Positions 3 to 24,389 of a stretch of 24,389 nucleotides of DNA are shown one piece after another (the first letter of the stretch is position 1; each line of letters starts with the position of its first letter). The position numbers and the translations under genes were made by a program. Origin of the DNA: a virus (Duplodnaviria > Caudoviricetes). Below the pieces are notes generated by a model. It was not told the origin of the DNA and ran no database searches. It was given only the letters and a program-made list of their open reading frames with translations. The stretch is from positions 1 through 24,389 of the IMG/VR virus record IMGVR_UViG_3300017978_000188. One strand, 5' to 3'.

Positions 3-620
3 GCTTATGTTAGCCCATCGGGCAAACACTATTGCCAAAAGTTTCAACGCGATATACGTTATCATCCTTTTAAGGGAGAAAATGCACAGTGGACTGATGC
101 ACTCTTAGAAGACAGATTTCGTAAAGAATTAAAATTCCATGCTAGGGCAAAAGAATCAATGCCTGTGTTAGAAATGGTAGATGTAGATGAAGCATCGAGA
201 ACTATAGTTTATCGTTGGCCTGGTGATGACTTTCTTATGCAAGGAATACATGCAGGCAGTTACGAAGCAGTATTACCTAATTGGAAAGAACAGTGGATAG
301 CACGTATTAAAGAAATGCGTCTAGCAAACATTGTTAAATTAAGTTTGCATCCAAACAGTTGGACAGTAAGCAACGGATCACTAGTACCATTGAATTGGTT
401 TTATTGTTACGATGCTGACGTAGGGTACGATAGTTTTGCCAATATGAACATACAAATTAGCAGTGGACGTAGAGAAAATTTGTATCCTATATTAGAAAAA
501 TATAACATAGATTTTAATACAGATTACCCTGCTACACAGTTACAAATAATTGCTTTTAATAGTTTTCGTAAAAATTATCCAAACGACCTAATAGATAGGA
601 TCTTAGAAGAAACAAAATGA
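3..620 (+). CDS. 5'-truncated protein with possible degenerate protein-kinase-like fold
   Basis: Frame of the 159..620 ORF is open back to base 3 (AYVSPSGKHYCQKFQRDIRYHPF...ELKFHARAKESMPVLE), so the gene starts before the window. KLSLHPNS and LVPLNWF sit where HxDLHxxN and LIDFG lie in kinase-like folds (weak). Confidence 0.5.
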   Translation, partial: AYVSPSGKHYCQKFQRDIRYHPFKGENAQWTDALLEDRFRKELKFHARAKESMPVLEMVDVDEASRTIVYRWPGDDFLMQGIHAGSYEAVLPNWKEQWIARIKEMRLANIVKLSLHPNSWTVSNGSLVPLNWFYCYDADVGYDSFANMNIQISSGRRENLYPILEKYNIDFNTDYPATQLQIIAFNSFRKNYPNDLIDRILEETK

Positions 621-1330
621 CTATAGCATGTATGCCCATTGACATTGATGTATCGTTGCCTAATGAACAGAATATTTTAGACTACGTTCAGGAATATCAA
701 TTTCCGTCGATGTTGCATTTACCAAGTCCACGATTTGACCCGTGGACCGTATCTCCTATTCTAGGGCGCATGCCTAGTAAAGATTGGAATGATCCTATTA
801 AGATTCGTAATTTGATCTTCAATAGACAAAATCCTAATTACGGAGGTAAAGTTGAATACGCCAACGGCTTTGATATATTATTTCCTGAAGTTGTTGATAT
901 GATTAAACAAATACCTATTCTTAATCCTATTTGTATCTTCATGAAACAGAATGCACTATCAACTTCTCACGTAGACACACATGGAGAAAATGACGTTAAA
1001 AGTATTCCTAACTTATGGGGACTAAACACTGAACCTAGACGATATAATATTCAAATGACAAAGTTTGATTATCAAAGTTTTTTTGTTAGTAAGACTAGAG
1101 AAAGCGAACGTATTCCTTATACACATATTAGTAAAGAATTGCCTGCTTATCTGTTTTGTGAAGATCATTATTTTCATGGAGCAGAATTCTGTGGAGAAGA
1201 TAAAGTAAGTTTATGTTTCTTAGGAACACCCGATTGGCCTAGGCATAATGCACTAATTAAAAAATCGTTAGAAAAGCATAGAGACAAAGCAATTATATTT
1301 GAGGATGACAATGGCTTTTTACACAACTGA
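617..1330 (+). CDS. putative 2OG-Fe(II)/cupin-fold oxygenase
   Basis: HVD (HxD) motif, distal FHGA His, then a basic residue (DKVSL); ATGA overlap with the upstream stop. Confidence 0.55.
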   Translation: MTIACMPIDIDVSLPNEQNILDYVQEYQFPSMLHLPSPRFDPWTVSPILGRMPSKDWNDPIKIRNLIFNRQNPNYGGKVEYANGFDILFPEVVDMIKQIPILNPICIFMKQNALSTSHVDTHGENDVKSIPNLWGLNTEPRRYNIQMTKFDYQSFFVSKTRESERIPYTHISKELPAYLFCEDHYFHGAEFCGEDKVSLCFLGTPDWPRHNALIKKSLEKHRDKAIIFEDDNGFLHN

Positions 1331-2384
1331 TTTGATCGAAATTCAAATTGAAAACAGTAGCATATGTAATGCTGCCTGTCCTCAATGTATTAGGGAGTTC
1401 AAAGAACCGACCAAAGACTGGATAAACGAAACATATCTAGACGTATCGTTTTTTGAAAACATCCCAGATGAAGTTTATCAAAAATTAAAAATATTTTATT
1501 TTACTGGCAATATCGGAGATCCGTGTACTGCTCCTAATTTTTTAGAAGTATGTAAATTTGTTAGGGAAAAGAATCCTGACATGTATATTAAAATTAGTAC
1601 TAACGGAGGAATGAAGAGTCCTGATTTCTGGTCTCAGTTAGGCACTATACTTGGCCCAAAGTCTGAAGTAGTATTTGCTATTGACGGCCTAGAAGATACT
1701 AATCACATATACAGAGTTAATGTAAAGTGGGACAAAGTAATGGCCAATGCTAAGGCATTTATTGCCGCAGGCGGACAAGCATTTTGGCAGTTTATTGCTT
1801 TCAAACATAATCAACATCAAGTAGAGCAAGCAAGAACACTAGCAACTGAAATGGGGTTTTCCAAGTTCATGATGAAACCTAGTCATAGATTTGCTCTAGA
1901 CGCAGTGCTTGGTGCAGAACGATTTAATAGATCTGATACAAAGATCGAACCTCCAGATGATGCGGCATTAACACATATAGTAGTAATTGACAGAACTGCT
2001 AAAAATCTTAAAGAGTTGAGAGAACAATCAAACACATCTTGTATCGATTGCCATGTAAAAAACACTTATCAAAGTGTATATATTGACCATCAAGGTAGAT
2101 TATGGCCGTGTTGTTATCTTGCCGCTGGATTATATGTAACTGACGGATTACCAACACACGACGGGTGGTTAAATTTGTGGCGTACATATGGTGACGATAA
2201 AATTAATCTTAAAAATCACAAGTGGTCCGACATCCTGAGCGGAGGCTTTTTTAGTGCTATAGAAGATAGTTGGTCAAAAGATTACAGCAGTGGTCGTATT
2301 ATTACTTGTGCAATTACTTGTTCAAAGTTTCAAAGTCGTGTGAATATTCCTGCTGAAATGAATAGAATTATTGAGAACGCATAG
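1311..2384 (+). CDS. radical SAM protein with C-terminal SPASM/twitch-type Cys region
   Basis: CNAACPQC (CX3CX2C), GNIGDP, STNGG, FAIDG, C-terminal C...IDHQGRLWPCC...CAITC. Start placed at ATG 1311 because GAGGA lies at 1301-1305. Confidence 0.9.
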   Translation: MAFYTTDLIEIQIENSSICNAACPQCIREFKEPTKDWINETYLDVSFFENIPDEVYQKLKIFYFTGNIGDPCTAPNFLEVCKFVREKNPDMYIKISTNGGMKSPDFWSQLGTILGPKSEVVFAIDGLEDTNHIYRVNVKWDKVMANAKAFIAAGGQAFWQFIAFKHNQHQVEQARTLATEMGFSKFMMKPSHRFALDAVLGAERFNRSDTKIEPPDDAALTHIVVIDRTAKNLKELREQSNTSCIDCHVKNTYQSVYIDHQGRLWPCCYLAAGLYVTDGLPTHDGWLNLWRTYGDDKINLKNHKWSDILSGGFFSAIEDSWSKDYSSGRIITCAITCSKFQSRVNIPAEMNRIIENA

Positions 2385-3706
2385 TGTATAACGATGATTA
2401 TAGTCCAACAGCATACGACAACTTTGTCTTATATGAAAAGATATTTGACAAACCGTGTGTTACACTAGTGGACGGTACACAAATATTTGATGAAGACAGT
2501 GCTTACTATTTTCATTTTTATCGTTGGGCTATATTGCCTACATGGGTTGGCACTGAAACTACCCCGCACATGATATTTGGTTCTAAGGGTTATATACCTC
2601 AACTAGAAAATAAAATTTACGATGCAGATACTGTAGAATATCTAAACCATCACGGACTTAATATCTACTTGTATGAAACACTAACATTTACAACACAGTT
2701 AGTAGACAGACCTAATTTTAAAATTAAAAAGACTAGTAATCTAATAGATACGATTATATCAGCATATGGTAATTCTATGACATTTGAGTGCCATCAAGAC
2801 AACAATAACTTGTTGTTATGCTACGAATTAGAATCTATTAATCAATTTGCCAAGCAGAATAATCTTAAAAATGTTAAGGTGCATACTTGTCATTACAATA
2901 TAAGTTTTATCAATAGTAAGTATCCTAACATACAATTATTGTGCAAAGATTTACATTTAGCCTCTATGGTAAATTACCCGCAGGAGGAAGTATATCCTTT
3001 TCAACTAATAGAGCCAACTGATTTAATAGAAACTAAGTTTATCTCTCCTAATTGGCGTTATCATAGTACTAGACATATACTAATGACTTATCTAATAGAC
3101 AAGCCTGGGATATATTCTTGGTATTATAACGGATCACTAGATAAGTTAAAAAGTAACTTATGGTTTGATTTATCCAAATCAAAATTAGAATCTGTAGTTG
3201 CACACGGACTGCCATTATTAAACCAGTCTACACCTTTAGAAATAAACCGCTGTCAAGGAATTAATACAATTGATGGTCAGATAGATTATCTAAAATATCC
3301 AGGCGGCACACAAGGTAGCCCTAGCGATTATAGAATGGATGACGCATACTTAAAAAGTTTTTGTGCAGTAATAACTGAAAGTTTCTTTGCTATGCCTACT
3401 GGTATAGTTAGTGAAAAAGTTCTTAATGCTATTAAATTAGGAAGACCATTTGTATTAGTTGCTCCTCCTAACACATTAGAGTATATGCACAAACTAGGGT
3501 TTCAAACATTTGAGAGATATTGGGACGAATCTTATGACGCTGAGCCTAATCATGAACTTAGGCTATTGAAAATTTTTGAAGTATTAGATTATATTAACTC
3601 TATGAGTATAGATGAACTTAAAGTATGGTATGCTAATATGAAAGATACTTTAGAACATAATGCAGAAGTAATTAAAAATCTAACTGCATCGGGTAATATA
3701 TTATGA
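2384..3706 (+). CDS. putative glycosyltransferase-like protein (GT10-like C-terminal motif), paralog 1
   Basis: C-terminal SFCAVITES...SEKVLNAIKLGRPFVLV...LGFQTFERYWDESYD resembles the GT10 fucosyltransferase E..TEK..A...P motif; GTG start overlaps the upstream TAG. Confidence 0.5.
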   Translation: MYNDDYSPTAYDNFVLYEKIFDKPCVTLVDGTQIFDEDSAYYFHFYRWAILPTWVGTETTPHMIFGSKGYIPQLENKIYDADTVEYLNHHGLNIYLYETLTFTTQLVDRPNFKIKKTSNLIDTIISAYGNSMTFECHQDNNNLLLCYELESINQFAKQNNLKNVKVHTCHYNISFINSKYPNIQLLCKDLHLASMVNYPQEEVYPFQLIEPTDLIETKFISPNWRYHSTRHILMTYLIDKPGIYSWYYNGSLDKLKSNLWFDLSKSKLESVVAHGLPLLNQSTPLEINRCQGINTIDGQIDYLKYPGGTQGSPSDYRMDDAYLKSFCAVITESFFAMPTGIVSEKVLNAIKLGRPFVLVAPPNTLEYMHKLGFQTFERYWDESYDAEPNHELRLLKIFEVLDYINSMSIDELKVWYANMKDTLEHNAEVIKNLTASGNIL

Positions 3707-4782
3707 CAATGTGTCCTTTTCCTTTTAGAGGCGTAATGGTTAAAACTGATGGACAGTTAGTTACCTGTTGCTACGGGGAAAGTATACAAGGACTAAACAG
3801 ATCTACACATACTATTGAACAAGCATTTAACAGTCCAGAGTTTCAACAAATAAGATTCAATCTTATTAACGGAGTAAAAGATAATCATTGTAAGAAATGT
3901 TGGGAATTAGAAGAACAGGGTGTGGAAAGTCTCAGACAACAAGAACTAAGAACAGAAGAATTTGATGCGGATGTATATGTTAATCCTAGGTTAGAATATC
4001 TCTTTCTAAGTCTCAGCAATCAATGTAATTTAAAATGTAGAACTTGCAGTCCTAGTGATAGTAGTTTTTGGATTAAAGAGTTTGAACAGCGTACCGGCAT
4101 TAAAAAAACAGTGTACTTAGAACCCGACGATAGTATATTCTTTTCTAGTTTTAAACAAGACACCCTACCGCATTTAAAAGAAATCGCATTTACTGGCGGC
4201 GAACCTTTAATGATGAAAAGTGTACATCGCATTTTAGAAACACTTGATTCTAATGTTAGCCTAACTTTTTACACCAACGGTACATTTTATAATCCCACTA
4301 TATTAGAAAAGTTTAAAGACGTTGACATCGCAGTAAGCATTGACGGAATAGATCAGCGATTTGAATATATGCGTCATCCTGCAAAATGGTATGAAGTTGT
4401 CAATAACCTTAAATTAATGAGCAGTAATTTAAAAGCCATTACCTGTACAGTTAGTGCTTATAATGTGTGGTATATAGACGAAGTTGCAGACTTTGCCGCT
4501 AGTCTCGGCGTAGACTTTATGGCACATATTTTATTTGAGCCAAATAATTTATCAGTGTTGTCCCTGCCGTATGAAATAAGATTAGAAGTTGCGGATAAAT
4601 TATCTAAACACAAAAACAGTCAGATTCAAAAAATTGTAGAATATTTAAAAACTGAAGCCGATGATAATTGGGAAAGTTTTGTAAAAGATGTTCAGCAAGG
4701 TGATAATATTAGAAATGAAAGTTACAAAGAAGTATTTTCAGAATTTTATAATATATTAGAACGCTATGGAAAAGCAATTTAA
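3703..4782 (+). CDS. radical SAM protein with N-terminal SPASM/twitch domain
   Basis: N-terminal CPFPF...DGQLVTCC...CKKCW, then CNLKCRTC, FTGGEPL, YTNGT, VSIDG. Confidence 0.9.
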   Translation: MTMCPFPFRGVMVKTDGQLVTCCYGESIQGLNRSTHTIEQAFNSPEFQQIRFNLINGVKDNHCKKCWELEEQGVESLRQQELRTEEFDADVYVNPRLEYLFLSLSNQCNLKCRTCSPSDSSFWIKEFEQRTGIKKTVYLEPDDSIFFSSFKQDTLPHLKEIAFTGGEPLMMKSVHRILETLDSNVSLTFYTNGTFYNPTILEKFKDVDIAVSIDGIDQRFEYMRHPAKWYEVVNNLKLMSSNLKAITCTVSAYNVWYIDEVADFAASLGVDFMAHILFEPNNLSVLSLPYEIRLEVADKLSKHKNSQIQKIVEYLKTEADDNWESFVKDVQQGDNIRNESYKEVFSEFYNILERYGKAI

Positions 4783-6088
4783 AGAACGCGACGACTACTA
4801 CTTTGCAGTAGTTTATGAAAATTTATTTCCTACAAGAGTGGGCAGTAAAAAGTTATTGTTAGAAAACGGCACAACTTTTAATGAAACCGATTTTAGTAAT
4901 TCTTATACATTCTTTGATTACTATAATGATTATTATCTAGACACCAGTTTAGACAACGATAAAACTCCGCACCTTTTATACACAGGTATGGGATCTATTC
5001 TACAATTAGAAACTTTAACTTATGAAGAAGATATAATAGAATATCTAAACATTCATGGATTGAACATTTATCTATACGAAACAACAGTAGTTGATTTAAA
5101 ACCAACGAAAAAGTTCTATGTAACACGTAATCAAGAATACAGTGCTGACTATATTAATTTTAGATTTGAAACAAACCAAGACTTTTATGTTTTTGAATTT
5201 GAAAGTATTGAGGAGTTTGTTAGAAGAAATTCCCTAACCAATGTTACTGTGTTTACCTGCGAAGGCAATACTAGTCGAGTATCTAAGCAGTACAGTTTTA
5301 AAATTAAAAGTAAAGAAGTATTCTTGGTGTCGTTGTTAAAAGAAACCAGCGAAGAAATTAATGGCTACGAAATAAGTAAGGATCTTGTAAGTAGATTTGA
5401 TCCTAGCACAATTACACACAAGTTCTGGTCGGGCAATTGGAGATATGATGTACACAGACATGTTATTTGTTCTTATCTAGTCAACAAGTCGAGTAAACTG
5501 TCTTGGTACTATAATTCTTCTTTAGAAGAAGTTCAACAGTTCTTTTGGTTTGACATTAGCAAGTGGAACAACGACGTTGTCCTAAAAGGCGATAAAACGC
5601 TTTGCAAAAATGCTCCTTACGTCCTAGACATTACTGCACCTGCAACTAAAGTAAATTTACAACAGTTGTGGACTATACCCACAGAAGAATTTTTCTGTCC
5701 AGGTAGTTCAACAACACCGTTAGAAAGTTATTTGACCTCATTCTGTGCAGTAGTGACTGAAAGCAACTTTGCACATCCGTTTCCTATGTTCAGTGAAAAG
5801 ACAATAAATGCTATCAAAGCAGGACGTCCTTTTATTGTTGCTAGTAGTGCAGGTACATTAGAATATCTACGGCAACACGGCTTTAAAACGTTCAGCGAAT
5901 TCTGGGATGAAAGTTATGACTTGGAAGAAAACCACGAACGCAGACTACAAATGATTTTACAAGTAATTGACTACATCGACGGTATGACTGTAGAACAACT
6001 CCAAGAATTTTACTCAAAAATAAAACCGACGATTGAGTATAATTTTCGCCGGCTTATGGAAATTAAAAACGAAGATTTAAGTTTTTAA
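4766..6088 (+). CDS. putative glycosyltransferase-like protein (GT10-like C-terminal motif), paralog 2
   Basis: Shares [15 protein letters not shown], NWRY, SWYYN, SFCAVxTES, SEKxxNAIKxGRPF and WDESYDxExNHExRL with 2384..3706; both are 440 aa. Confidence 0.5.
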
Positions 6089-13709: not shown

Positions 13710-14137
13710 GAGACTTCCGATTTACCTTCAGCGATTTTCTTAACGTTGATATAACCAGCGCCACGCTCAGTCATATCAACACCTTCTTCCCCGGCGATGT
13801 CCCTGCATAATGTTCTGAACCAACGATCTACAATCTCTTCGTCCGGATCACCATCAAAGCCATATCCTTGTTGTTTCAATTGTAACACAAAGACATCGTT
13901 CCAGTCAAGTTCAAGAAAACCGTTACGTAAGTTTTCTTTATTGATATGTGTATCCAAAACAGCAATATATGGCTCACCAAGAGCGTTTGCACGTTCTTTT
14001 GGTGTTAGTTTTGCTAACTCTTCTTCCTTTTTGGCTGCTTCTGCTCTTGCCTTAGCCAAAGCCGCTTCGATGTTGAGTTTTTCTTTTTCTTCTTCCAGAC
14101 GTTTAATGCCTGTGACTTTCTTTAACCATTCTTTCAT
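13706..14137 (-). CDS. hypothetical protein
   Basis: Start moved to ATG 14137 (TAATG coupling with the queE stop); N-terminal charged helix. Confidence 0.75.
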   Translation of the reverse strand: MKEWLKKVTGIKRLEEEKEKLNIEAALAKARAEAAKKEEELAKLTPKERANALGEPYIAVLDTHINKENLRNGFLELDWNDVFVLQLKQQGYGFDGDPDEEIVDRWFRTLCRDIAGEEGVDMTERGAGYINVKKIAEGKSEVS

Positions 14138-14991
14138 TATGTCCCCCACTCATTTTTAAACAGCGGAACTTGTAGTCTATCACTGTAGCGTAAGCCATTC
14201 TTCATCGCTAGTTCCGCAACACGACGATTATTAAGAGCATAGACACTTTCTACACCACCTACGGGCATTAGATAAACATGCCCTTTAAATCCTGCTGAAC
14301 GGTATGCGGCAATAGCACATTCGGCATCTGCATAATCTTGCTCAGTGGCAATAACAAACTTCAAATATGCTGTACCAACATCTTCGTATCTGCAAACGAT
14401 CTCTGGCTTAATGGCATCTTCCCACTTTTCACCGCTACATGGAAGTTTGGCACTTACGCTGAATGTAATTTCTCTGTCGAAATCGACATTAGGCATTTGC
14501 CATTGAACTAGATACTCTATAAATTCTTCACTTAGTTCTTGAGTCCCGTTAGTTTCAAAGGTAATTTCTTTCAAGCCTGCCATCTTAGGATGACTCAGCA
14601 AATCTGGATAAGCACGTTGCCATCCTAGCAAAGGTTCACCACCTGTAATAACTAGATGTTCATCTTTCCAAGTTTTGTGAGGCAGTATATCACAAATAGC
14701 GTCAGCCACCGCAGAGGTATCAAGCATAGGACTAAGATGTTTAAAACGAGGATCCCAACTAGCGTATGAATCACATCCAGTAGATACAAGTGGAAGTTCT
14801 TCATACGTTTTAAAATCTGCAATACGTTCTGCAATAACTTCAACTTCATTGCTTAATTCTCCCCTCGGCATGCCAAAGCCTTGACATTTAAAATTACAGC
14901 CAAAGGTACGTAAGAAAATAGAAGGAACGCCCATGTAGCGTCCTTCACCTTGGATACTGTAAAATAGTTCTGCGACTTTTAATTTACTCAT
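14137..14991 (-). CDS. queE: 7-carboxy-7-deazaguanine synthase (QueE-like radical SAM)
   Basis: ELFYSIQGEG, FLRTFGCNFKC...GCDS, VITGGEPLL, FETNGT, SVSAKL, LKFVI, YLMP, YSDRLQ; folE is 0.6 kb upstream. Confidence 0.88.
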   Translation of the reverse strand: MSKLKVAELFYSIQGEGRYMGVPSIFLRTFGCNFKCQGFGMPRGELSNEVEVIAERIADFKTYEELPLVSTGCDSYASWDPRFKHLSPMLDTSAVADAICDILPHKTWKDEHLVITGGEPLLGWQRAYPDLLSHPKMAGLKEITFETNGTQELSEEFIEYLVQWQMPNVDFDREITFSVSAKLPCSGEKWEDAIKPEIVCRYEDVGTAYLKFVIATEQDYADAECAIAAYRSAGFKGHVYLMPVGGVESVYALNNRRVAELAMKNGLRYSDRLQVPLFKNEWGT

Positions 14992-15311
14992 TGTTTAAAT
15001 AATTCCAGGTTAATAATTTTGGCAACACGTTCGCCTACATCTTCACCACTTGGAATGACATAAGTTTGACTGTCGTGTCTGTCTTTACGTTCATCGTAGT
15101 GGCGTACATTAAGTATTCTGCCACCAACTGCTGTACTCAATTCAAATGTAATACGTCCTTCGCCTTCGGGACGACCACGTTCTATCATTGTTTGTGCGCC
15201 TACCATTTTTAATCCTCTTGATTCTTGATAATCTTTTTCTGCTTCGTACTTGTGGCGGTTATCCCACATGTCGCGGACTTTACCATAAAGCCACTTATCG
15301 AGAAATTTCAT
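14988..15311 (-). CDS. hypothetical protein
   Basis: 107-aa ORF with ATGA overlaps on both sides. Confidence 0.75.
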   Translation of the reverse strand: MKFLDKWLYGKVRDMWDNRHKYEAEKDYQESRGLKMVGAQTMIERGRPEGEGRITFELSTAVGGRILNVRHYDERKDRHDSQTYVIPSGEDVGERVAKIINLELFKQ

Positions 15312-15574
15312 ACAGGATCACCTTTAGTGTCTGTTTGATTAGTCATGTACTTTTCGAGAGCGTCTTTAAACTGTTCTTCTGTGAGACCATGCCAGCCAAT
15401 GCACTTGCCAGTTGGACTGCGACCGCAACCACACTTACCGATCTCGTCTGCGTTCTCTTTTACTCTTACTTGCATTTCTTTATCCTTCTTAAAAATATTG
15501 TCCCAATTAGAATCAAATGTTTTTTGATCTACACTATAAGGTCTTGGGCGACTTCCTTTTCCACCGTCACCCAT
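15308..15574 (-). CDS. small protein with CDGSH-like 3Cys-1His motif
   Basis: CGCGRSPTGKCIGWH compared with the CDGSH consensus CxCxxSx5CDGxH. Confidence 0.6.
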   Translation of the reverse strand: MGDGGKGSRPRPYSVDQKTFDSNWDNIFKKDKEMQVRVKENADEIGKCGCGRSPTGKCIGWHGLTEEQFKDALEKYMTNQTDTKGDPV

Positions 15575-15576
15575 AA

Positions 15577-16386
15577 TTACCTCGGAGCAAATTCTTGCTG
15601 TAGTTTGATGTTGTCAAAAAACTCTTTCTTTGTGTTGCCGTCGTCTTTGAAAGCACCTTTAAGAACAGTTGTTTGAGTTAGGCTAGAGTGTGCCATAATA
15701 CCGCGATTCTCACAGCAACCGTGTACTGCTTGAATATAAACACCTAGGTCTTTTGCACCTGTGGCTTTTTCAATTTCTCTAGCGATATCGTTAGCAAGTT
15801 CTTCTTGTAGTGTGCCACGACGAGCACACCACTGAGCAATGCGAGTATACTTGCTAAGGCCAATGAGTTTTTGAGCGGCAATAATCCCGATATAAGCAAC
15901 GCCACTGACAGGTTGGTGGTGATGACTACACATACTACGTAACTCACTACGCACCACAAGCATTCCTTCATATCGATCTTGCGAGTCATTTGGGAAAGCG
16001 GTTGCGTCTGGTGCTGGTTCATATCTTCCTGCCATAATTTCGTTAAAGTACATCTTAGCAAGACGCTTTGCTGTGCCTTGACTATTAGGATCTGTTTCTC
16101 TGTCAATTAACAAAGTGTCTAGAACTTGTTCAAAGGCATTAGTTGCTTCTTTGATTAGTTGTTCTTTATCTTCTTCGCTGATGTAATCGCTGATATTATC
16201 ACCGGCCCAGAAACGTTTCTTGTTTGCTCGCATCTTTTCGCGAATTGCTTGTGCAAGATTTTTTTCTTGTGGTGCTGGGGGTGCTTTTACATATACAGGA
16301 GTTTCTACCTGTACATATTCGTCTTGTTTAAAATCTTTATTAACGTCTGCGTTAATAACGGGGTCGAGTGTAAATTCTTTTGTCAA
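15577..16386 (-). CDS. folE: GTP cyclohydrolase I
   Basis: TAKRLAKMY, SMCSHH, IGLSKYTRI, RRGTLQEEL, HGCCENRG, EFF; TTG start after GGAGA. Confidence 0.96.
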   Translation of the reverse strand: MTKEFTLDPVINADVNKDFKQDEYVQVETPVYVKAPPAPQEKNLAQAIREKMRANKKRFWAGDNISDYISEEDKEQLIKEATNAFEQVLDTLLIDRETDPNSQGTAKRLAKMYFNEIMAGRYEPAPDATAFPNDSQDRYEGMLVVRSELRSMCSHHHQPVSGVAYIGIIAAQKLIGLSKYTRIAQWCARRGTLQEELANDIAREIEKATGAKDLGVYIQAVHGCCENRGIMAHSSLTQTTVLKGAFKDDGNTKKEFFDNIKLQQEFAPR

Positions 16387-16426
16387 TTATAATTCTCCGA
16401 GTTATAGACGGGGATGTCTATGTGTT

Positions 16427-16456
16427 ATTATATAGATTTATTTAGGTTTTTGTCAA
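16427..16456 (-). promoter_or_regulatory. sigma70-type promoter for folE with nested CTAAATA
   Basis: TTGACA (16456-16451), 18-nt spacer, TATAAT (16432-16427); CTAAATA at 16445-16439. Confidence 0.8.
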
Positions 16457-16457
16457 A

Positions 16458-16751
16458 TTAATGATTACCGTTTTCTTCAGTGTAAAACATCCAACGGCCT
16501 TCTTCATAATTCCAATGACGGTTGTCATAGAAATTAAAATGCATACAATAACCAAACAACCCAATTTCAAAGTCTAATCCTGCATGACTTTGACGTATGG
16601 TCCAATTTAAATTGAACGATATTATGCTAGAATCTTTGTAAAACTCTAGTTCAATAAACTTATTCTTAAACGGTGTTTCGCGAGCATGACACCATAAATT
16701 CTTAAACTCTTTGCTCCAGGGATTGCGTAGATTAAAGTTAAATGATATCAT
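16458..16751 (-). CDS. hypothetical aromatic-rich protein
   Basis: 97-aa ORF, ATGA-coupled. Confidence 0.7.
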   Translation of the reverse strand: MISFNFNLRNPWSKEFKNLWCHARETPFKNKFIELEFYKDSSIISFNLNWTIRQSHAGLDFEIGLFGYCMHFNFYDNRHWNYEEGRWMFYTEENGNH

Positions 16752-16972
16752 GTTCTTATAGTCTTTCTTTCATGTTCTTCTTCCTGCTTACGCTTCCATT
16801 CTTGGTAGAATAGTTCTGCACATTGCCGTTTGACTTCTATAGGTACGTCAGGCATCCAATGTGCATCTCTGCAATCATAGTATCGTCCATTCGCACCAAA
16901 GTCGCTGTTCACAAGAACAGCGACACATATGAATAGTGCTAGTACAATTAAGAAATTACGCCAAACGCCCAT
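16748..16972 (-). CDS. small protein with N-terminal hydrophobic anchor
   Basis: Start moved to ATG 16972; FLIVLALFICVAVLV hydrophobic segment then YYDC...QC. Confidence 0.6.
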   Translation of the reverse strand: MGVWRNFLIVLALFICVAVLVNSDFGANGRYYDCRDAHWMPDVPIEVKRQCAELFYQEWKRKQEEEHERKTIRT

Positions 16973-17316
16973 GCAGTGAGTCCGATATAAGTTATGTAAT
17001 GAAGATATTGATCTAAGCCCAGCAACCACCAAAACTGTTCGTGTGTGTTTGCTCCCCAACCTAAACGACTATTTAGATTCATTTTAGCCCAGTCAATATG
17101 ATAGTGAACAACAGCATCGACAAATGCCATCCAAACGGCAATAGGAGTAAATGCAAATAGACACAGATATGTGCCTAGACCATGCAAGCCGGCATGTAGT
17201 ATGCCTCCAGGATGTCCGTAGGTGCCTTTGTTACTATATTGAAACCTTGTTTGCAGAGGAAAATCTACAATACAGTGTTTTGTTACCAGCAAGGTTAGAA
17301 CAATTAAAATTTCCAT
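16948..17316 (-). CDS. DUF3307-like membrane protein
   Basis: KHCIVDFPLQ, HAGLH, HYHIDWAK, GLDQYLH motifs with hydrophobic helices. Confidence 0.8.
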   Translation of the reverse strand: MEILIVLTLLVTKHCIVDFPLQTRFQYSNKGTYGHPGGILHAGLHGLGTYLCLFAFTPIAVWMAFVDAVVHYHIDWAKMNLNSRLGWGANTHEQFWWLLGLDQYLHYITYIGLTAWAFGVIS

Positions 17317-17549
17317 TATAATCTTTCACTTAGTAAGATACGGCAAAGTTTTTCATCTTTTTCTGTGGCAAATTTAAAAACCATACAGTCTTCACGTGGA
17401 GTATATACAAATCTGTCACCTGGCAGTCCAAACACTTCTAGTACCATAGCACAAGTTTCATTCCACCATAAGTTTCCTTGACTGTGCCATTCTACTAGAA
17501 CGTGATGGTCAAACTGCTTTTCGGTAGTTTCCTTTTTCAGGAATGACAT
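17316..17549 (-). CDS. hypothetical protein
   Basis: Start moved to ATG 17549 after GGGGAG; TAATG-coupled to the next gene. Confidence 0.65.
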   Translation of the reverse strand: MSFLKKETTEKQFDHHVLVEWHSQGNLWWNETCAMVLEVFGLPGDRFVYTPREDCMVFKFATEKDEKLCRILLSERL

Positions 17550-17883
17550 GCCGTACTCCCCCACGTGGATCTTCCATATCGCCTTTGCGTCTTGGAATCA
17601 TATGTATATGCGGATACATTACAGTTTGTCCAGCACTTTCTCCAAAGTTTTGTCCAACGTTGAATCCATCCCATTGTTCGGCAATGACACCTTCCATGCC
17701 CATACTGTATGCGGCTTCGTAGCATTTCATAACACAGGCATAGTTTTCGTATGCTGGTACAAACAACAAATGTCCTTCTGTTACAGGATACTTGTCATAA
17801 AATACCCATACGCTGTCTGTTTTGTGTGCAAGGTCGGTCCATACTGCACGACCTTCATTGAGTGCTTGTTCAAGATCAGTCAT
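17509..17883 (-). CDS. HIT family nucleotide hydrolase
   Basis: DKYPVTEGHLLFVP, DGFNVGQNFGESAGQTVMYPHIHMIPRR; start moved to ATG 17883. Confidence 0.9.
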   Translation of the reverse strand: MTDLEQALNEGRAVWTDLAHKTDSVWVFYDKYPVTEGHLLFVPAYENYACVMKCYEAAYSMGMEGVIAEQWDGFNVGQNFGESAGQTVMYPHIHMIPRRKGDMEDPRGGVRHVIPEKGNYRKAV

Positions 17884-18403
17884 AGTGTTGTTCTTCTGGA
17901 TTCCATTTACGCCACCATTCTTCCCAAGGAAAAACAATCCATTGCGGGTCATTAAATTTATTAATGACTTCGGCGGCATAGTCAATTTTTAAAGTACTTG
18001 TGCTAACTTCGTTATCGTAGAGTACGGCAACACGAACATTGTTATTCCAAATGTCTTGCCATTTACTATCGTTAGGATAACATCCACTAGGCCAGTCCTC
18101 TTTAATCCAACTTAGTGTAGCACCGCTATCATTAATGTCATCTACGATAAGAATCTTCTTACCGTTAAATGAATCTTCAGCCATCCACAGATTGGACTCA
18201 GGAGCAGAAGTTTCGTCACGCAGACTGACCTTCAATGCTTCCATGGGACGTCCAAGGTATTGACTAATAAGGTTGGCTGGCGTAAGCCCGCCTCTAGTAA
18301 TACCTACTACGTAGTCGGGAGTCCAGCCATCAATCCACATTTGGCGAATTAACTCTTGGACTTGACGCTGTACATCATTCCAACTTACGTAGACCTTCTT
18401 CAT
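17876..18403 (-). CDS. purine phosphoribosyltransferase (Gpt/type I PRTase-like)
   Basis: VVGITRGGL, PRPP-binding ILIVDDINDSGAT, C-terminal WIVFPWE. Confidence 0.92.
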   Translation of the reverse strand: MKKVYVSWNDVQRQVQELIRQMWIDGWTPDYVVGITRGGLTPANLISQYLGRPMEALKVSLRDETSAPESNLWMAEDSFNGKKILIVDDINDSGATLSWIKEDWPSGCYPNDSKWQDIWNNNVRVAVLYDNEVSTSTLKIDYAAEVINKFNDPQWIVFPWEEWWRKWNPEEQHYD

Positions 18404-18633
18404 GCTGTCAATCCGTGTGCTAATGCTTGCAATTCTTCTTTAGTCATGAAGAAGTTGTAGACACTAGTTTGATTAACTGTGCCATCTTCTTTAAGACCTT
18501 CGTTGATTAGGTCGACACTAAACAACCCCTTAGGACTAATGACTTCGTGCTTAACTAAGCGAAGACGAAAGCCACTGCTTTCTTTAATAGTCATTTCTTT
18601 GCGTGTGTGCGCCACTGATTCATGAAGTTCCAT
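18400..18633 (-). CDS. hypothetical protein
   Basis: 77-aa ORF, AAGGAG RBS. Confidence 0.75.
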   Translation of the reverse strand: MELHESVAHTRKEMTIKESSGFRLRLVKHEVISPKGLFSVDLINEGLKEDGTVNQTSVYNFFMTKEELQALAHGLTA

Positions 18634-19024
18634 TACTATCTCCTTTTATTGCTTCAAATGTTCTATACTTGGCCAATGCGTTTACGTATTCATCGTACTT
18701 TTTCTTTAGCGATGGATACTTAGCCTCCATTGTAGCATCTCTTTCAGGAATCATCAAGACTTTTTCAATGGTCTTTAACCGTTCTTCTAAATCAATGCCA
18801 TTAATAACAACTTTACCCTTGACTTCTAATGCCGCATCTTTTTCCAAAATAACTTTATTCTCACCGTACGGCATAGTCATTACGGCTTTGCCATTTGAAT
18901 TAGTAAAGTTTGTACTCGAACTGGTCCAACTAGCACCGGAAGTAATAGTGCCGTTTGACGCAAGTGTAGCACCAGTTCCCCCTAATACAGTTGGGTAATT
19001 TACTTTATAATTAAAGTTACTCAA
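18620..19024 (-). CDS. hypothetical protein, Ser/Thr/Gly-rich N-terminus and helical C-terminus
   Basis: 134-aa ORF, GGAG RBS, TTG start. Confidence 0.7.
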   Translation of the reverse strand: MSNFNYKVNYPTVLGGTGATLASNGTITSGASWTSSSTNFTNSNGKAVMTMPYGENKVILEKDAALEVKGKVVINGIDLEERLKTIEKVLMIPERDATMEAKYPSLKKKYDEYVNALAKYRTFEAIKGDSNGTS

Positions 19025-20075
19025 AATAACTCTCCAAAGTGCCTTTACGCTTAACGTCTAGTGTTTGGCAATGGAAGCCACCACTCATTGTACGTGCTTG
19101 ACGCTGTGGCAAGCCAATAGTTTCAATACCGTGCTTGTCTAACACTCTGCGTATGACATCTTGATCTTTGTCAATGATAACAAGATTAGGATTAACACTC
19201 AGCATGTTCATACCAATCCAAGGACTGCAAGGAGGAATACCTCCGGGTAATTCTGTAGGCGCAGTATACATCATATCTGGAGTAATCCAAATCTTATCCC
19301 AGTCTTTAAAGATTTGTGGGTAATGGTCTTCACGCAATCGTGCGCCATTAAACATAACAAGTCCTGGACGCAACGGAATAACTGTTGAATCAAAGTGTGC
19401 AAAGAAGTAAAAGCCTTCTGCTAGGTGTAGTTTGTAACCACGCTTTTCGACAATGTTCTTCATCCACTGATAACCTTTAAGTGTTCCAGTATTAGAAACT
19501 TGATACAACAAGTCCTTGCCTAAGCGCACAACGTTAGGTGCTTCCCAGATAATTTCGTGATTGTTAACTGTAGGCTTGCTTAGGTCTTCTACTTGATACA
19601 AGTCATCTAGCAAAATAGGCTTAGGAGCACTAATCCACTCAACCCCTTCTTCTACTTGCTGTGTTAGATAGTCATAGTAAGCACGGCTTTCGTATTGACG
19701 GCAACGTCCAGGACTTGCGGCTTCTAATACTAGGTTATCTAATGGCAACAATAAATCACGTGGACAGAATGTATACCAGCCAGTTGTAGTCCAGTCGGGA
19801 CTACTAAATTCTTTACTGTGATCGACACTTTTAGGTCTGTGTACCTTAACACCTAAGCCACGAAGTGTATCTGCTAGAATTTCTAAGTCTTCATTTGCTT
19901 CATCACGAATGCGTTGGTCATGAGGACCTTGTAGTACTTGTAATTCTTCTAGTGTGTATTCTGCGTAACTAAACGCTTGTACTGCTTTACTCATTGTTGG
20001 CAACATTGAGTGGTCTGCGGTACCTACGATGATCTCCTCTAATGGATCCCAATCGTTATGTGAGCAAATTGCCAT
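19017..20075 (-). CDS. amidinotransferase (StrB1/glycine amidinotransferase family)
   Basis: SHNDWDPLEEIIVG, FCPRD, WISAPKP, HFDSTVIPLRPGLV, WIGMN, RTMSGGFHCQTLDVKRKG; collinear, from memory, with inosamine-phosphate amidinotransferase. Confidence 0.93.
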   Translation of the reverse strand: MAICSHNDWDPLEEIIVGTADHSMLPTMSKAVQAFSYAEYTLEELQVLQGPHDQRIRDEANEDLEILADTLRGLGVKVHRPKSVDHSKEFSSPDWTTTGWYTFCPRDLLLPLDNLVLEAASPGRCRQYESRAYYDYLTQQVEEGVEWISAPKPILLDDLYQVEDLSKPTVNNHEIIWEAPNVVRLGKDLLYQVSNTGTLKGYQWMKNIVEKRGYKLHLAEGFYFFAHFDSTVIPLRPGLVMFNGARLREDHYPQIFKDWDKIWITPDMMYTAPTELPGGIPPCSPWIGMNMLSVNPNLVIIDKDQDVIRRVLDKHGIETIGLPQRQARTMSGGFHCQTLDVKRKGTLESYFE

Positions 20076-20994
20076 ATTCTTCCTTTATTATTTTTATGAA
20101 TTCATCTTTGTCTAGATGTAGATACTTGTGGAAACTTAACCTGTTTGTCAATCCTCCACGATTGTATTCTTGCCACCTACTGTCTCCTAGGGCAAACATA
20201 ACAGTATTGGAAGGTTCTACGCCTAGTAAGCCGGCAAACTCTAACTGTTTGTGTTTATAGTTGACTGTAATGTAGTCTGGTGAAAACTGTTGTAAAAAGT
20301 AACTGCCTAATTTTGCACCGTACTTGTTATTATAACTTCTATACTGGTAAACAAACAATGGGTCGTCATCATTTATTCTTGTCAAACGCATGCCTACTCT
20401 TGCGTGTGCAATAGGAAAGTATTTGCTGACACTAAATGCAATATCTGTAATACAAGGATAGGTAAAGTCGTAGACCATGTGCGAACTAATGCCATAGTAA
20501 GCACAGTCTATGAGAACAGGAATTTTTAATTCCGTGCATTTATTCATCAGCCATTCATATGACTCGTGTTTGTTACCAGTATCTGCAAATGGGAAACTAA
20601 TGACTACAGCGTCGTTGATGTCTAATAAGTCATCTTCTAGATATTTCCAGTTAGGCCAACTATTACGCCATGCTAATTGGTGATACATATATTCGCCTTT
20701 GAAGCAACGGAATCTACGTGTGTGATTCTTCATGTAGAACTTGTCAAAGGCTTCTGTAGTACCTGCACTGAATACAGGATGCTTGAAATCTTCTAAGCCA
20801 ACAAATCTACTTAGACTTGTGCTGTTAATCCATGCTAGATATTGTTCACAGAATTCGTCAGTGGTATACTTACCAAAGAACGTGTGTTCATTATAAGCAT
20901 CGTAGGAGACCAGCGAATTTATAAAGTTAGGATCTTCTATGGCGAATGCGCCACCTAGAAGTTTGTCTCTATGGTCATAGGTAATCTTAGTCAT
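20056..20994 (-). CDS. PLP-dependent fold-type-I enzyme (aminotransferase/decarboxylase-like)
   Basis: GTTEAF, PFADTGN, VLIDCAY (DxAY), FSVSKYF (Schiff-base Lys), ARVG. Confidence 0.8.
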   Translation of the reverse strand: MTKITYDHRDKLLGGAFAIEDPNFINSLVSYDAYNEHTFFGKYTTDEFCEQYLAWINSTSLSRFVGLEDFKHPVFSAGTTEAFDKFYMKNHTRRFRCFKGEYMYHQLAWRNSWPNWKYLEDDLLDINDAVVISFPFADTGNKHESYEWLMNKCTELKIPVLIDCAYYGISSHMVYDFTYPCITDIAFSVSKYFPIAHARVGMRLTRINDDDPLFVYQYRSYNNKYGAKLGSYFLQQFSPDYITVNYKHKQLEFAGLLGVEPSNTVMFALGDSRWQEYNRGGLTNRLSFHKYLHLDKDEFIKIIKEEYGNLLT

Positions 20995-21592
20995 TTAAAT
21001 GAGTTACCTGCATGACTGTGAAATCTTGAATACCAAAGTTTGCGGCACCGTGCCAAGTGTCGCCGTACCAAGTATAGACATCACCGGCGTTCCATTCACT
21101 GATAACATTGCGACCAATTTGTAATACTTGACCAAAACACCAGTCACTTAGCATCACTGCTGAACGACCTATTTTCTTTTGATGCTCAGGCCCTAAGTTA
21201 TGTTCCTTGATAAATGTAGCATAACTGTCAAAATGCCAAAAACTTAAATATCCGGGAGTAATTTTTAAAAAGTTGTAGTGTTTCTTACCATAGTCAAATT
21301 TATCATAGGCGTGTTGCAAGCCTTTAGATAAGTCAGGACTAAGACACATATAATGCAGTGTGGGTTCTTTAGGAACTTGCCACTCTGCATATAAATCTTC
21401 TAATTGAAGTTTAAGATCTGTGGCATGAGTGTTCCACTTGTCTTCTTTTGGGACTTCGTGTGTTTGATAAGTTTCCAACCATTTAAAGTTAGAAAGGTCT
21501 GCGGGCGACCAAGTCACCGGCAGACTGCTTTTAATTGCTCCAGTTTTAAACCAATTCTTAAACCCTAGAGATTCCAGCAAGGGATTCTTCAT
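20987..21592 (-). CDS. putative 2OG-Fe(II)/cupin-fold oxygenase
   Basis: PG...WHFD (HxD), W.AGDVYTW, WHGAANFG distal His, MQVT. Confidence 0.65.
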   Translation of the reverse strand: MKNPLLESLGFKNWFKTGAIKSSLPVTWSPADLSNFKWLETYQTHEVPKEDKWNTHATDLKLQLEDLYAEWQVPKEPTLHYMCLSPDLSKGLQHAYDKFDYGKKHYNFLKITPGYLSFWHFDSYATFIKEHNLGPEHQKKIGRSAVMLSDWCFGQVLQIGRNVISEWNAGDVYTWYGDTWHGAANFGIQDFTVMQVTHLND

Positions 21593-22052
21593 TTTTATTC
21601 TTCCTGCTTTCTAAATATTGTTCATTGTGTATCCAACGATTATTTACTAGGAATCCCCATTCCCTACGTTGAGGTCCAGGCATAAACATTGTCCAACATT
21701 CTACAGTTGGATCTAATTCAATACGATGATAACTGTTAGCCTTACAAACACGGAAGTGGCCTGGTTTACGCCAGTGTGCAACTTCTCCAAACTTTCGACC
21801 TTCTTTATCGAACTGCGGAATCCATTCCCAGTAACCGCCTTTAAGAATTAAAGTAGCGTAAGGCCATGGATGATCATGCACATCATCGGGGTCTGATTTA
21901 AGAAACTTATGTATGAACACATTAAATGGAAATCTTGTTCTGTCTTTAAGAAAAACATAATACCTTTCGAGATAGGGTTCGTTGGATTCACGATCCATGA
22001 TAATTCGTTTCCGACCAATTTTGTCAAGTAGTTTTAAAAAAGCCTTAATCAT
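21558..22052 (-). CDS. cupin-fold protein
   Basis: HDHPW...GGYWE...HRIEL metal-binding cupin pattern. Confidence 0.7.
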   Translation of the reverse strand: MIKAFLKLLDKIGRKRIIMDRESNEPYLERYYVFLKDRTRFPFNVFIHKFLKSDPDDVHDHPWPYATLILKGGYWEWIPQFDKEGRKFGEVAHWRKPGHFRVCKANSYHRIELDPTVECWTMFMPGPQRREWGFLVNNRWIHNEQYLESRKNKNEESLAGISRV

Positions 22053-23002
22053 TCTGTGCCTTTCTTTATATGCTTTGAAATATAATCCTTGTTGGGTATA
22101 TTTGTCTGTTCAAGTATTGCCTGAAGTTCAGTTTTATCTTCCGGCGATAGGTTTATTATATCTAATTTTTCAGGATAAGTCAAGACATTAGTTGTCCAAG
22201 GTAGTTTCATTCTTTCCACAAACTTTGACAAGTCTATAAGCCCAAACCAGTTGTTGCAATGTATAGTGGTATGAATAGAAATGTCAAAATCTAAATCATC
22301 AACCTGATCGATAAACTTGATAATATCAGCCCATTTACTACCAGAACGCACCCTTTCATTAAGTGCTCCAAAACCGTCTATACTGACAATGAAATTTACA
22401 TTTTTGAATTCATCTAACAATTCTATTGTTTCGCTGTCGAGATCAAATGTTCCGTTAGTATTATAGGTTACTGTAACCAAATGTTTGTTCTTAATCTTTT
22501 TAAGAAACTTTTTATGACGATTAGTCATTAAAGGTTCGCCGCCTAGGAACAATATCTTTTTTATAGTTCTTGGAACAGATGTTATTTCTTTAGTCTTGGT
22601 AATCAGTAATTTTTTGGCAGTGTTAGGATTGTTCTTTTCTGCCCACGCTGAACTAAATTCATCAAAACACCCATCGCAGGTCAAATTACAGATGTTGTCA
22701 AACCCAACTTCAAAGTATTCTAATTTAATTGAGTCTCTATTATACTCTTTATTAAATTGTTGACGTAGACTTTCTTTGCCTAGACTTTCTTCATGATAAC
22801 ATTTTTCACATCCTGCAATGGGAATGCCGGCAGTACTTTGTTCCCTCAATGTTTTATATTCGTCTGAAGAAAGTATTTTGATCAATGAGCCCGTGAAAAT
22901 ACCTGCCGGCGTTTTAAAACGACAGCAGGGAAAAATCCTGTCATCACCTCTTAGATTAGCGTGTCGCCAGAATGCAGAACATATAACTCCATTATCTTTC
23001 AT
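22049..23002 (-). CDS. radical SAM protein with N-terminal SPASM/twitch domain
   Basis: CSAFW...PCC...CEKC, CNLTCDGC, LGGEPL, NTNGT, VSIDG; same architecture as 3703..4782. Confidence 0.9.
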   Translation of the reverse strand: MKDNGVICSAFWRHANLRGDDRIFPCCRFKTPAGIFTGSLIKILSSDEYKTLREQSTAGIPIAGCEKCYHEESLGKESLRQQFNKEYNRDSIKLEYFEVGFDNICNLTCDGCFDEFSSAWAEKNNPNTAKKLLITKTKEITSVPRTIKKILFLGGEPLMTNRHKKFLKKIKNKHLVTVTYNTNGTFDLDSETIELLDEFKNVNFIVSIDGFGALNERVRSGSKWADIIKFIDQVDDLDFDISIHTTIHCNNWFGLIDLSKFVERMKLPWTTNVLTYPEKLDIINLSPEDKTELQAILEQTNIPNKDYISKHIKKGTE

Positions 23003-23399
23003 TATCCTTTTTCTTCGATTCCCAATCGTCTTTACACATATTGTAATATGCTTTCATATGTTCGTAGACTTTTTCTAAACCAGGATACTCTTTACACATC
23101 TTATTAAATTCTTCCCATTCAGGAAATGCATTAACAAATGGTTCTGGTGGTCTCCATAATCCGCTAGGATGACCAAACGGGATATCTGCTGAACCTGTAA
23201 TAGTTATAGTGTCACTTGCAGTAAGTGAAGAGTAAGTGTACATAGACTGACCTGCACCATAATTACTCAAATCAATAGTAATTGATCCTATATCTAAGTC
23301 TATAGGATTACTTGAGATTGTTATAGAGCCCGTTGGCTGAGAAGAAGTTATCTCCAAGGTCTCTGGTTTGTTTTCTGAGTTGTGGTAAAAACTTGTCAT
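22992..23399 (-). CDS. hypothetical protein, Ser/Thr-rich N-terminus and helical C-terminus
   Basis: 135-aa ORF; start uncertain because of a 92-bp overlap with the glycosyltransferase. Confidence 0.65.
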   Translation of the reverse strand: MTSFYHNSENKPETLEITSSQPTGSITISSNPIDLDIGSITIDLSNYGAGQSMYTYSSLTASDTITITGSADIPFGHPSGLWRPPEPFVNAFPEWEEFNKMCKEYPGLEKVYEHMKAYYNMCKDDWESKKKDNER

Positions 23400-24375
23400 A
23401 ATTATCCATGTATTGTATTATTTTTTGACAAATGTGTGGACGATATTCTTGATACTTTTTCCAACTTTCAGTCCACTCACTAGGATACTTAAATGTGTCA
23501 TAGGCCATTTCGCTGTAACTTAAACGATCCGGAACCATAGGAATAGCATCAACTACTGCACCTTCGTACCAACTAATCCCCAGTGTCTCTTGTAAGTTTG
23601 CTGAGAACACTAACTTCGCTTCGCCTAACAAGTTATGATATTCATTCTTTGTTAGTTGTTGATCCTGACAGACTACGAACTCGTACTGTGGCAAGTGTTC
23701 TTTTAGATCTCTAAAAATTTCAACTTGCTTCTCGGGTGCGATGCGATGTGGGAATAAGATTAGGTCACGCTTCTTCATGCCTTTGTACGGAGTAAGTGTA
23801 TCTTCCATATACTCCATAGGCCAGCCTGTGCGTACAACTTTGCCTGTTACGTTGGCGTTAGGGTCGTATCCGCCTTTGCCTAACAAGTTTTTGCCAAACA
23901 TTTCAATATGAAACGTTGTGGCAAAGTAGTTATGGTCGAATGCGTGATAGAAACTCTGCTCTGCATGACGTACCCAAGGTTTATCACCGACTAATCGTCC
24001 AAGAAAGTCTTGAGGGTCGTAACTACCCGCATGCCATAACCCATGTATAGTTACTGGAATACCTAGCAACTCACTCATATACTTTAAGTTGATGACACCA
24101 GGATGCCAAGCATCTGTAAAGATAAAATGGTCACCAGCAAGTATTTTGCCCCCAGTGAAGAGTCTACCCATTTCTTCAACTTGTGCAGCCTTATAGATAT
24201 TGGTGCCGCCAAAATTAAGAAAAGCACCAGGAGTAGTAGCACTTGGGATATTAGTAGGACCTGATATAATGTGTACATTATGTCCTGCCTTTCGCAAGAT
24301 AGCAGGTAGGTGAGTTTTCCACTCGCCTGTATAACGAGTGGAAACTGCTTCGAGATCTACTAAGTAGATGGTCAC
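23308..24375 (-). CDS. GT-B fold (GT4-like) glycosyltransferase
   Basis: ILFPHRIAPEKQ, QETLGISWYEG (Ex7E), PMVPDRLSYSE; GTG start overlapping the TGA of an upstream gene cut by the window edge. Confidence 0.8.
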   Translation of the reverse strand: MTIYLVDLEAVSTRYTGEWKTHLPAILRKAGHNVHIISGPTNIPSATTPGAFLNFGGTNIYKAAQVEEMGRLFTGGKILAGDHFIFTDAWHPGVINLKYMSELLGIPVTIHGLWHAGSYDPQDFLGRLVGDKPWVRHAEQSFYHAFDHNYFATTFHIEMFGKNLLGKGGYDPNANVTGKVVRTGWPMEYMEDTLTPYKGMKKRDLILFPHRIAPEKQVEIFRDLKEHLPQYEFVVCQDQQLTKNEYHNLLGEAKLVFSANLQETLGISWYEGAVVDAIPMVPDRLSYSEMAYDTFKYPSEWTESWKKYQEYRPHICQKIIQYMDNYDKFLPQLRKQTRDLGDNFFSANGLYNNLK

Positions 24376-24389
24376 TGACGACCATTCCT

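Follow-up and report, generated by a model that had tools for sequence, protein, structure and literature searches.

A mobile cassette with a StrB1-like amidinotransferase at a glycosyltransferase locus of an uncultured jumbo phage

Two units in a seven-gene stretch

Record IMGVR_UViG_3300017978_000188 of IMG/VR is a virus fragment of 24,389 bases, all of which (hereafter the window) was analysed here for the genes around a StrB1-like amidinotransferase. Between positions 19017 and 24375, on the minus strand, seven open reading frames (ORFs) overlap from neighbour to neighbour by 4-92 nt, and the genes for an oxygenase, a pyridoxal phosphate (PLP) enzyme and the amidinotransferase are directly consecutive, as an initial annotation of this DNA had already described. 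Similarly tight packing was observed across most of the arm 6085-24389, so the overlap within the seven-gene stretch is not special. The backbone genes (polymerase, clamp, glycosyltransferase (GT), T-fold gene, queE and exonuclease) are syntenic with those of Pseudomonas phage Paride, Arenbergviridae, and the source is an uncultured jumbo phage with a PA5oct/Paride-like backbone. Its closest relatives were estimated to be 12-23% complete at 44-85 kb, which implies a genome of about 350-370 kb. The seven genes, with the evidence for each and SAM standing for S-adenosylmethionine, are:

19017..20075, minus strand: StrB1-like amidinotransferase, 352 aa, cassette (homology, motif alignment, ratio of nonsynonymous to synonymous substitution rates (dN/dS) 0.014-0.030)
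20056..20994, minus strand: PLP enzyme, predicted fold type I class I/II (HisC/CobD-like), 312 aa, cassette (fold, motifs, profile matches)
20987..21592, minus strand: small HxD...H iron-oxygenase-like protein, 201 aa, cassette (aligned triad, weak profile match)
21558..22052, minus strand: cupin (phrog_4786), backbone, outside the cassette (74/80 GT loci, 6/69 amidinotransferase loci)
22049..23002, minus strand: N-terminal-twitch radical SAM enzyme, 317 aa, CxxxCxxC at 105-112, cassette (NF033640; separate insertion upstream of the cupin)
22992..23399, minus strand: backbone ORF without a named function, 135 aa (ORF list, synteny)
23308..24375, minus strand: GT-B/GT4-like GT, backbone, dpdL/folE/queE locus (structure clusters, phage homologues, neighbourhood)

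These seven genes, which the initial annotation had treated as one cluster, form two units: the GT, the 135-aa ORF and the cupin belong to the backbone, and the radical SAM enzyme, oxygenase, PLP enzyme and amidinotransferase make up a mobile cassette. Synteny anchored on the GT (the best 80 of 599 loci) placed the cupin in 74 loci, folE in 71, queE in 66, and the amidinotransferase, PLP enzyme and oxygenase in 4. The remaining 76 loci, where the GT and cupin stand without the cassette, rule out a single seven-gene pathway. Clustering at 90% left 34 GT clusters with enough flank, and the cupin was present in all 34, folE in 33 and the amidinotransferase in 2. One related locus, L075, is 69-82% identical to the window in DNA over the backbone and has neither 22049-23002 nor 19017-21592, which points to two insertions, one on each side of the cupin. 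The insertion sites are flanked by two small backbone ORFs of one family with low-complexity N-termini (18620-19024 and 22992-23399).

Anchoring on the cassette gave the complementary picture. Among 69 amidinotransferase loci, the PLP gene was found in 61, an oxygenase homologue in 46, a radical SAM homologue in 40, the cupin in 6 and the GT in 5 (17 when distant GTs were counted), and the amidinotransferase was found in 69 of the best 80 of 259 PLP-anchored IMG/VR loci. Co-occurrence in relatives, on which the single-cluster view hung, thus extends to the PLP enzyme and amidinotransferase but not to the GT and cupin. We then considered the 46 PLP clusters whose flanks reached 5 kb, leaving out 8 that were shorter; the neighbours were the amidinotransferase in 41 (a count inflated by amidinotransferase-anchored loci in the pool), GT-B-like genes within 5 kb in 35, a twitch radical SAM gene in 28, the oxygenase in 24, a Mtd_N-domain (tail-fibre-like) gene within 10 kb in 24 and the backbone GT in 12. 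The cupin, present in 2 of the 46, was rejected as a pathway member. The cassette usually resides in a large tailoring island carrying its own GT-B-fold genes, and the earlier proposal that the neighbouring GT attaches the product finds no support in the same counts (35/46 against 12/46).

In quick trees, whose groups were labelled by context after a first tree had been viewed, the amidinotransferase of the window nests among island-type copies, and a second group from the GT locus forms a separate clade. Constraining the GT-locus amidinotransferases to a single clade was rejected by the approximately unbiased (AU) test (p 1e-20; 36 chosen rows). By these phylogenies, the cassette moved into the GT/deazaguanine locus at least twice. 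Purifying selection acts on the cassette genes, with dN/dS of 0.014-0.12 among unsaturated pairs. Another locus, L002, carries a mosaic cassette that is identical to the window at 99% for the amidinotransferase, 64% for the PLP enzyme, 54% for the oxygenase and 70% for the radical SAM enzyme, which suggests recent gene-level exchange. The PLP family had 259 matches in IMG/VR and none in the cultured-phage collection.

The backbone GT had no Pfam match; it fell in GT1-like clusters of the ESM atlas, with a weak GT4 match (E 0.01) and annotated phage homologues, among them genes of the cultured phages PA5oct, Paride, Phosso and ACP17. The cupin matched phrog_4786 with E 5.8e-39. In 34 of 34 clusters the GT is adjoined by dpdL-like and DpdA-like genes, and the DpdL motif LxxxHRHxF (in relatives; the dpdL gene lies outside the window), FolE and QueE were all found for this locus. 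The DpdA-like gene, which presumably carries TGT-like motifs, matched ACP17 gp123 weakly in pairwise comparison (E 0.008) and had no PDB or PHROG match. Two further partners of the GT lie in the window:

14137..14991, minus strand: queE-like radical SAM gene, backbone (profile match, synteny)
15577..16386, minus strand: folE (GTP cyclohydrolase I), backbone (profile matches, synteny)

ACP17 and Paride carry the GT with dpdL-like, DpdA-like, folE and queE genes, and Phosso carries it with the T-fold gene, folE and queE. Likeness to the DpdL/DpdA locus of ACP17/phiST, as given in the available text of 10.1101/2023.04.13.536721, concerns the backbone only: ACP17 shares FolE, QueE, the LxxxHRHxF T-fold gene and the GT, and the main text of that source has 0 matches for a glycosyltransferase. 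The backbone GT is a separate candidate for adding a sugar to deazaguanine in the cultured phages Paride, PA5oct and ACP17. Phages like PA5oct are restricted by an endonuclease that targets modified genomes (10.1101/2025.03.31.646159, in part).

The cassette might therefore tailor a sugar that the backbone GT places on phage DNA at the 7-deazaguanine locus. Two independent entries into that locus (AU p 1e-20 against one clade), the constant dpdL-like and DpdA-like neighbours of the GT, and the top fold match of the island protein u440 to a T4 DNA glucosyltransferase (below) speak for this, as do PLP genes that lie right after a GT and an epimerase without an amidinotransferase; the latter form a third lineage (L214, L233, L234, L243) that also has a 2-oxoglutarate (2OG) oxygenase and a hexapeptide acyltransferase. 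We nevertheless consider such DNA tailoring unlikely, given the 76 of 80 GT loci without the cassette and the location of most cassettes elsewhere, under a motif common to structural genes. An amidinotransferase/radical SAM/GT block is present, moreover, in Campylobacter phage CP220, for which ADG is the DNA modification reported (others are not excluded there).

Enzymes of the cassette

By full-length homology, the amidinotransferase is assigned to the penteins of the StrB1/AGAT type and is StrB1-like. Its best PDB match was StrB1 (1bwd, E 1.7e-85, residues 3-350), more than 30 orders of E-value ahead of AGAT (about 1e-52), and StrB1-type motifs are present. Cys336 and His227 of the triad, Asp229 and Arg246 are invariant in 121 of 121 aligned homologues, and D107, which like Asp229 is taken to bind the guanidino group, is kept in 120. 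Position 178, which aligns with the catalytic Asp of AGAT (Asp254; triad taken from the accessible text of PMC3684758), is Glu in the window, Asp in 102 homologues and Glu in 19. The Glu co-varies with S224F and is paired with Phe224 in one 10-row clade. We take Glu at this site to be the state in ADI and DDAH as well. The Glu178 clade could accordingly contain deiminase-like hydrolases or enzymes that have lost transfer activity; we judge this very unlikely, because the gene is strongly constrained (dN/dS 0.014-0.030), the Glu forms keep the same partners as the Asp forms, and every other site residue is retained. A distant pentein of 404 aa occurs in another locus (L252:17623-18837).

The PLP enzyme was modelled with pLDDT 91.9, and the model points to fold type I, class I/II, HisC/CobD-like, with the Schiff-base Lys, Asp and Arg motifs present (D163, K191, R199 and R285 are invariant). 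Fold matches to HisC, CobD, C-S lyases and arginine oxidases were tied (Z 20-22, root-mean-square deviation (rmsd) about 4, about 290 residues aligned), and a sequence search of the PDB with this protein alone gave nothing useful. Among 41 family members, 28 matched PF00155 and none matched PF01041 (DegT), on which basis a DegT-family sugar aminotransferase was rejected; DegT enzymes were also absent from the best 50 fold rows listed, which in itself excludes nothing. HisC and CobD act on phosphorylated substrates. The same holds for StrB1 (PMC13707489, available portion), so that a phosphorylated intermediate is a reasonable inference.

The oxygenase carries an H120-x-D122...H181 triad that is invariant in 21 aligned rows, with a weak C-terminal profile match to 2OG dioxygenases (E 1.5e-4). 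The cassette radical SAM enzyme matched NF033640 at 215.6 bits against a cut-off of 170. A twitch radical SAM enzyme acting as an alcohol dehydrogenase has a precedent in BtrN, which together with BtrS in 2-deoxystreptamine synthesis likewise places transamination after dehydrogenation (PMC13707489, PMC10337720, both in part), whereas in the cassette enzyme, a candidate dehydrogenase, the twitch domain is N-terminal. The enzyme families named in the initial annotation hold in profile and structure searches, the oxygenase and the GT being the least firm assignments.

The logic of the cassette appears streptidine-like, and we do not place it within the streptidine pathway, because its PLP enzyme is of class I/II and not a DegT sugar aminotransferase. 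StsC, of the streptidine route, belongs to the DegT/DnrJ/StrS family. In that branch (route per the available text of PMC13707489) StrB1 is the closest solved amidinotransferase, and the same order of oxidation, amination and amidination is possible in the cassette. The cassette differs in having no NAD dehydrogenase or kinase and in the Glu in place of the catalytic Asp, and no StrH, resistance or export genes were seen with it. A Gfo/Idh gene upstream of the GT was found in 3 of 69 amidinotransferase loci, yet also in 18 of 80 GT loci, and an APH-like kinase occurs in the island of relatives. The comparison with streptidine first drawn is supported for the StrB1-like amidinotransferase and not for the PLP partner (0/41).

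The specificity flap resembles both StrB1 and, at F224/A226, residues F245/S247 of CyrA, a glycine-specific amidinotransferase (PMC4887976, in part), so the acceptor is not readable from sequence. A plain amino acid or amine (glycine, lysine or serine-derived) might be amidinated to guanidinoacetate-like or cyclic guanidine amino acids, as would suit this flap and a class I/II PLP fold with an invariant C-terminal Arg whose tied matches include RohP, MppP and GntC. Such an acceptor seems quite improbable for an enzyme far closer overall to StrB1 than to AGAT and in a persistent neighbourhood of glycan enzymes.

Tailoring island and late-promoter-like motif

The first 6 kb of the window are the end of a tailoring island, whose genes are listed below with a motif in the cupin gene:

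3..1330, plus strand: two island genes outside any named family; the island continues past the left end of the window
1299..2384, plus strand: island radical SAM gene (profile matches)
2384..3706, plus strand: second u440 paralogue, 36% identical to the first (sequence comparison)
3703..4782, plus strand: island N-twitch radical SAM gene (NF033640, 276.9 bits)
4766..6088, plus strand: u440, divergent GT-B fold, candidate transferase for the cassette product (model pLDDT 95.3)
21641..21646, minus strand: TAAATA hexamer inside the cupin gene, candidate late promoter (5/5 cassette-bearing cupins against 2/43 others)

In the three closest contigs (amidinotransferase 98-99% identical) the island extends at least 25 kb further, with more radical SAM genes, two or three u440 genes, a second PLP paralogue, an epimerase, a short-chain dehydrogenase/reductase, a second amidinotransferase adjoining a DegT-like fragment, a third pentein, a sugar-phosphate cyclase, the APH-like kinase, a RuBisCO-like protein and a nucleotidyltransferase; one of them, G006, ends within the cyclase gene. 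Contig G083, which ends before the cassette and whose cyclase is 97% identical to that of G007, has an island of about 47 kb running from thyA to baseplate and tail-fibre genes. The u440 C-terminal domain is shared with the f50 family (probability 98.3), and a PDB sequence search with u440 gave nothing useful. Islands in L186, L189, L193 and L050-L053 have an extra adenylate-forming ligase, B12 radical SAM genes, and SGNH-like and PP-loop genes around the cassette.

The best PDB match of the cyclase was 4p53 (E 6e-77), which we take to be ValA/EEVS. As a universal partner of the cassette the cyclase was rejected, being present in 3 of 50 cassette contigs and 0 of 27 GT contigs, all but one of which are fragments less than 90% complete. 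The block of cyclase, APH-like kinase, RuBisCO-like protein, cupin and nucleotidyltransferase in L255:14519-18889 (G007), L256 and L262 is a candidate viral cyclitol pathway that includes a phage RuBisCO-like gene. That island cyclase and cassette together make a guanidino-aminocyclitol, a streptidine-like carba-sugar that would give the tail fibres or capsid a cationic glycan and so put aminoglycoside-type chemistry to use in decorating virions, is conceivable and rather unlikely.

The motif WTAARTA, which we assume to resemble the T4 late promoter TATAAATA, lies a short way ahead of an in-frame ATG in 24 of 28 island units, 1 of 10 GT-locus units, 6 of 12 structural (baseplate or tail) starts and 1 of 503 backbone starts, with up to five gene starts considered per unit. 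The window has TAAATA, without the leading W, in cupin codons 54 nt before the oxygenase start. All 5 distinct cupins that accompany a cassette carry the hexamer, among them those of two relatives with a cupin synonymous divergence (dS) of about 2, as against 2 of the 43 other cupins. We regard it as a candidate internal late promoter. A sigma-70 promoter and terminator scan of the window was at chance level (28 against 26.7), and no tRNAs were found in it. One perfect sigma-70 consensus (12/12) lies at 16427-16456 on the minus strand, upstream of folE.

A possible guanidinylated unit and its destination

A guanidino-installing pathway, as the initial annotation had suggested, remains plausible, as a conserved StrB1-like amidinotransferase travels with the PLP enzyme (61/69; 69/80). 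Tentatively, and at a little under an even chance, we propose that the cassette makes a guanidinylated sugar, cyclitol or amino-alcohol unit for virion glycans late in infection. The radical SAM enzyme or the oxygenase would oxidise a sugar, cyclitol or small phosphorylated alcohol at a hydroxyl, giving a carbonyl, and the PLP enzyme would supply an amine by transamination or decarboxylation. The amidinotransferase would then transfer the amidino group from arginine to that amine through Cys336, and a GT-B-fold island enzyme of the u440 or f50 type (two copies at 2384-6088) might put the unit on tail-fibre, baseplate or capsid proteins. This proposal draws on the closeness to StrB1, the PLP/amidinotransferase linkage, the GT-B-like and Mtd_N neighbours, the u440 fold, WTAARTA before island units and structural starts, the TAAATA kept in the lineage of the window, the G083 island reaching tail genes, cellular PLP homologues among surface-glycan genes, and an amidinotransferase in a virion preparation of Synechococcus phage S-SCSM2R.

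Several observations weigh against virion glycans. The loci are related, so counts across them are not independent; 11 of 46 clusters, that of the window among them, have no GT-B-like neighbour; of 5 large contigs, only 2 have the cassette within about 45 kb of the tail block; and the Mtd_N search of 5 contigs from the lineage of the window was blank, as was its control. Among the fold matches of u440, T4 DNA beta-glucosyltransferase ranks first (Z 11.6, with rmsd 5.1 over 267 aligned residues; the second has Z 9.9), the cassette entered the GT/deazaguanine locus twice, and the PLP enzyme has ties spanning transaminases, decarboxylases, lyases and arginine oxidases and no DegT membership. As to timing, WTAARTA was defined after the sequences had been viewed, and a first, stricter TAAATA test gave 14/41 against 70/623. 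The five TAAATA-bearing cupins are relatives of one another; the 18-kb arm has 11 copies of the hexamer; a looser test found it ahead of 8 of 23 genes of the Paride replication arm; and it is absent near the cassette in the second GT-locus lineage (0/8). For PA5oct, the available text of PMC7318152 reports only sigma-70-like motifs.

Comparable modules are present in cultured phages. ORF301-310 of S-SCSM2R, a T4-like cyanophage, include a putative inosamine amidinotransferase (35% identical) among GTs, a radical SAM enzyme and 2OG oxygenases, whereas the amidinotransferase is partnered there by a DegT-like fragment (57% to an island gene of the relatives) and not by a member of the cassette PLP family; the virion preparation contained glycine amidinotransferase, for which the authors allow carry-over (PMC12801897, in part). 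Campylobacter phages CP220/CPt10 (PMC2853527, in part) likewise have an interchangeable module of radical SAM, amidinotransferase and GT-like genes, differing in an amidinotransferase of 26% identity and in the PLP family, which is unmatched in the cultured-phage collection. A viral glycine amidinotransferase is listed in a table of PMC8226683 (seen as an excerpt). As the initial annotation had supposed, no characterised phage pathway of this composition was found in the literature covered (mainly open-access main texts without supplements), nor in the available portions of PMC11360552 and PMC12619734. New here are the two-origin test, the Glu/Phe active-site clade, the u440 fold, the island map and the internal late-type motif. 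Since 2010, phage modules with amidinotransferase and radical SAM genes have been catalogued with no function attached, and the cassette is frequent among uncultured jumbo phages; dividing the cluster in two shows which genes deserve testing. If true, a guanidinylated glycan on virions or sugar on DNA would be a chemistry new to viruses, relevant to how they bind hosts and evade defences, and a source of new amidinating and radical SAM enzymes.

Cellular homologues bear on a further destination, in which the product alters the host surface (lipopolysaccharide or lipid) or stays a small molecule in free form, an aminocyclitol for instance, that acts on host defence or competitors. Ten cellular genome loci carry the PLP gene, three among GT, epimerase and DegT genes and four beside an oxygenase homologue, and in the marine bacterial records L155, L156 and L159 the homologues lie among surface-glycan genes. 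Homologues in such surface-glycan contexts and beside Kdo-hydroxylase-like genes would fit a host-surface or free product, as would island oxygenases resembling LpxO/OlsC and the cyclase, kinase and nucleotidyltransferase in the island of the closest relatives. We hold a host-surface or free product to be unlikely: only 3 of the 50 cassette contigs (fragments) carry the cyclase, no exporter turned up in the mapped islands, where no systematic exporter search was made, and late timing would better fit particle assembly.

Four of the ten PLP loci, from Bdellovibrionota, adjoin a distant amidinotransferase and twitch radical SAM genes, and distant penteins lie beside the PLP gene in the Bdellovibrionota loci L160-L164. 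In L155, L156, L158 and L157 (SAR11-type single cells and Methylocystis) an oxygenase-PLP pair occurs without an adjacent amidinotransferase, and the pair in L156 adjoins rRNA and glycan genes. Two SAR11-type genomes and the Methylocystis genome do have amidinotransferases, in unrelated contexts away from the PLP gene, so the oxygenase-PLP pair stands alone there.

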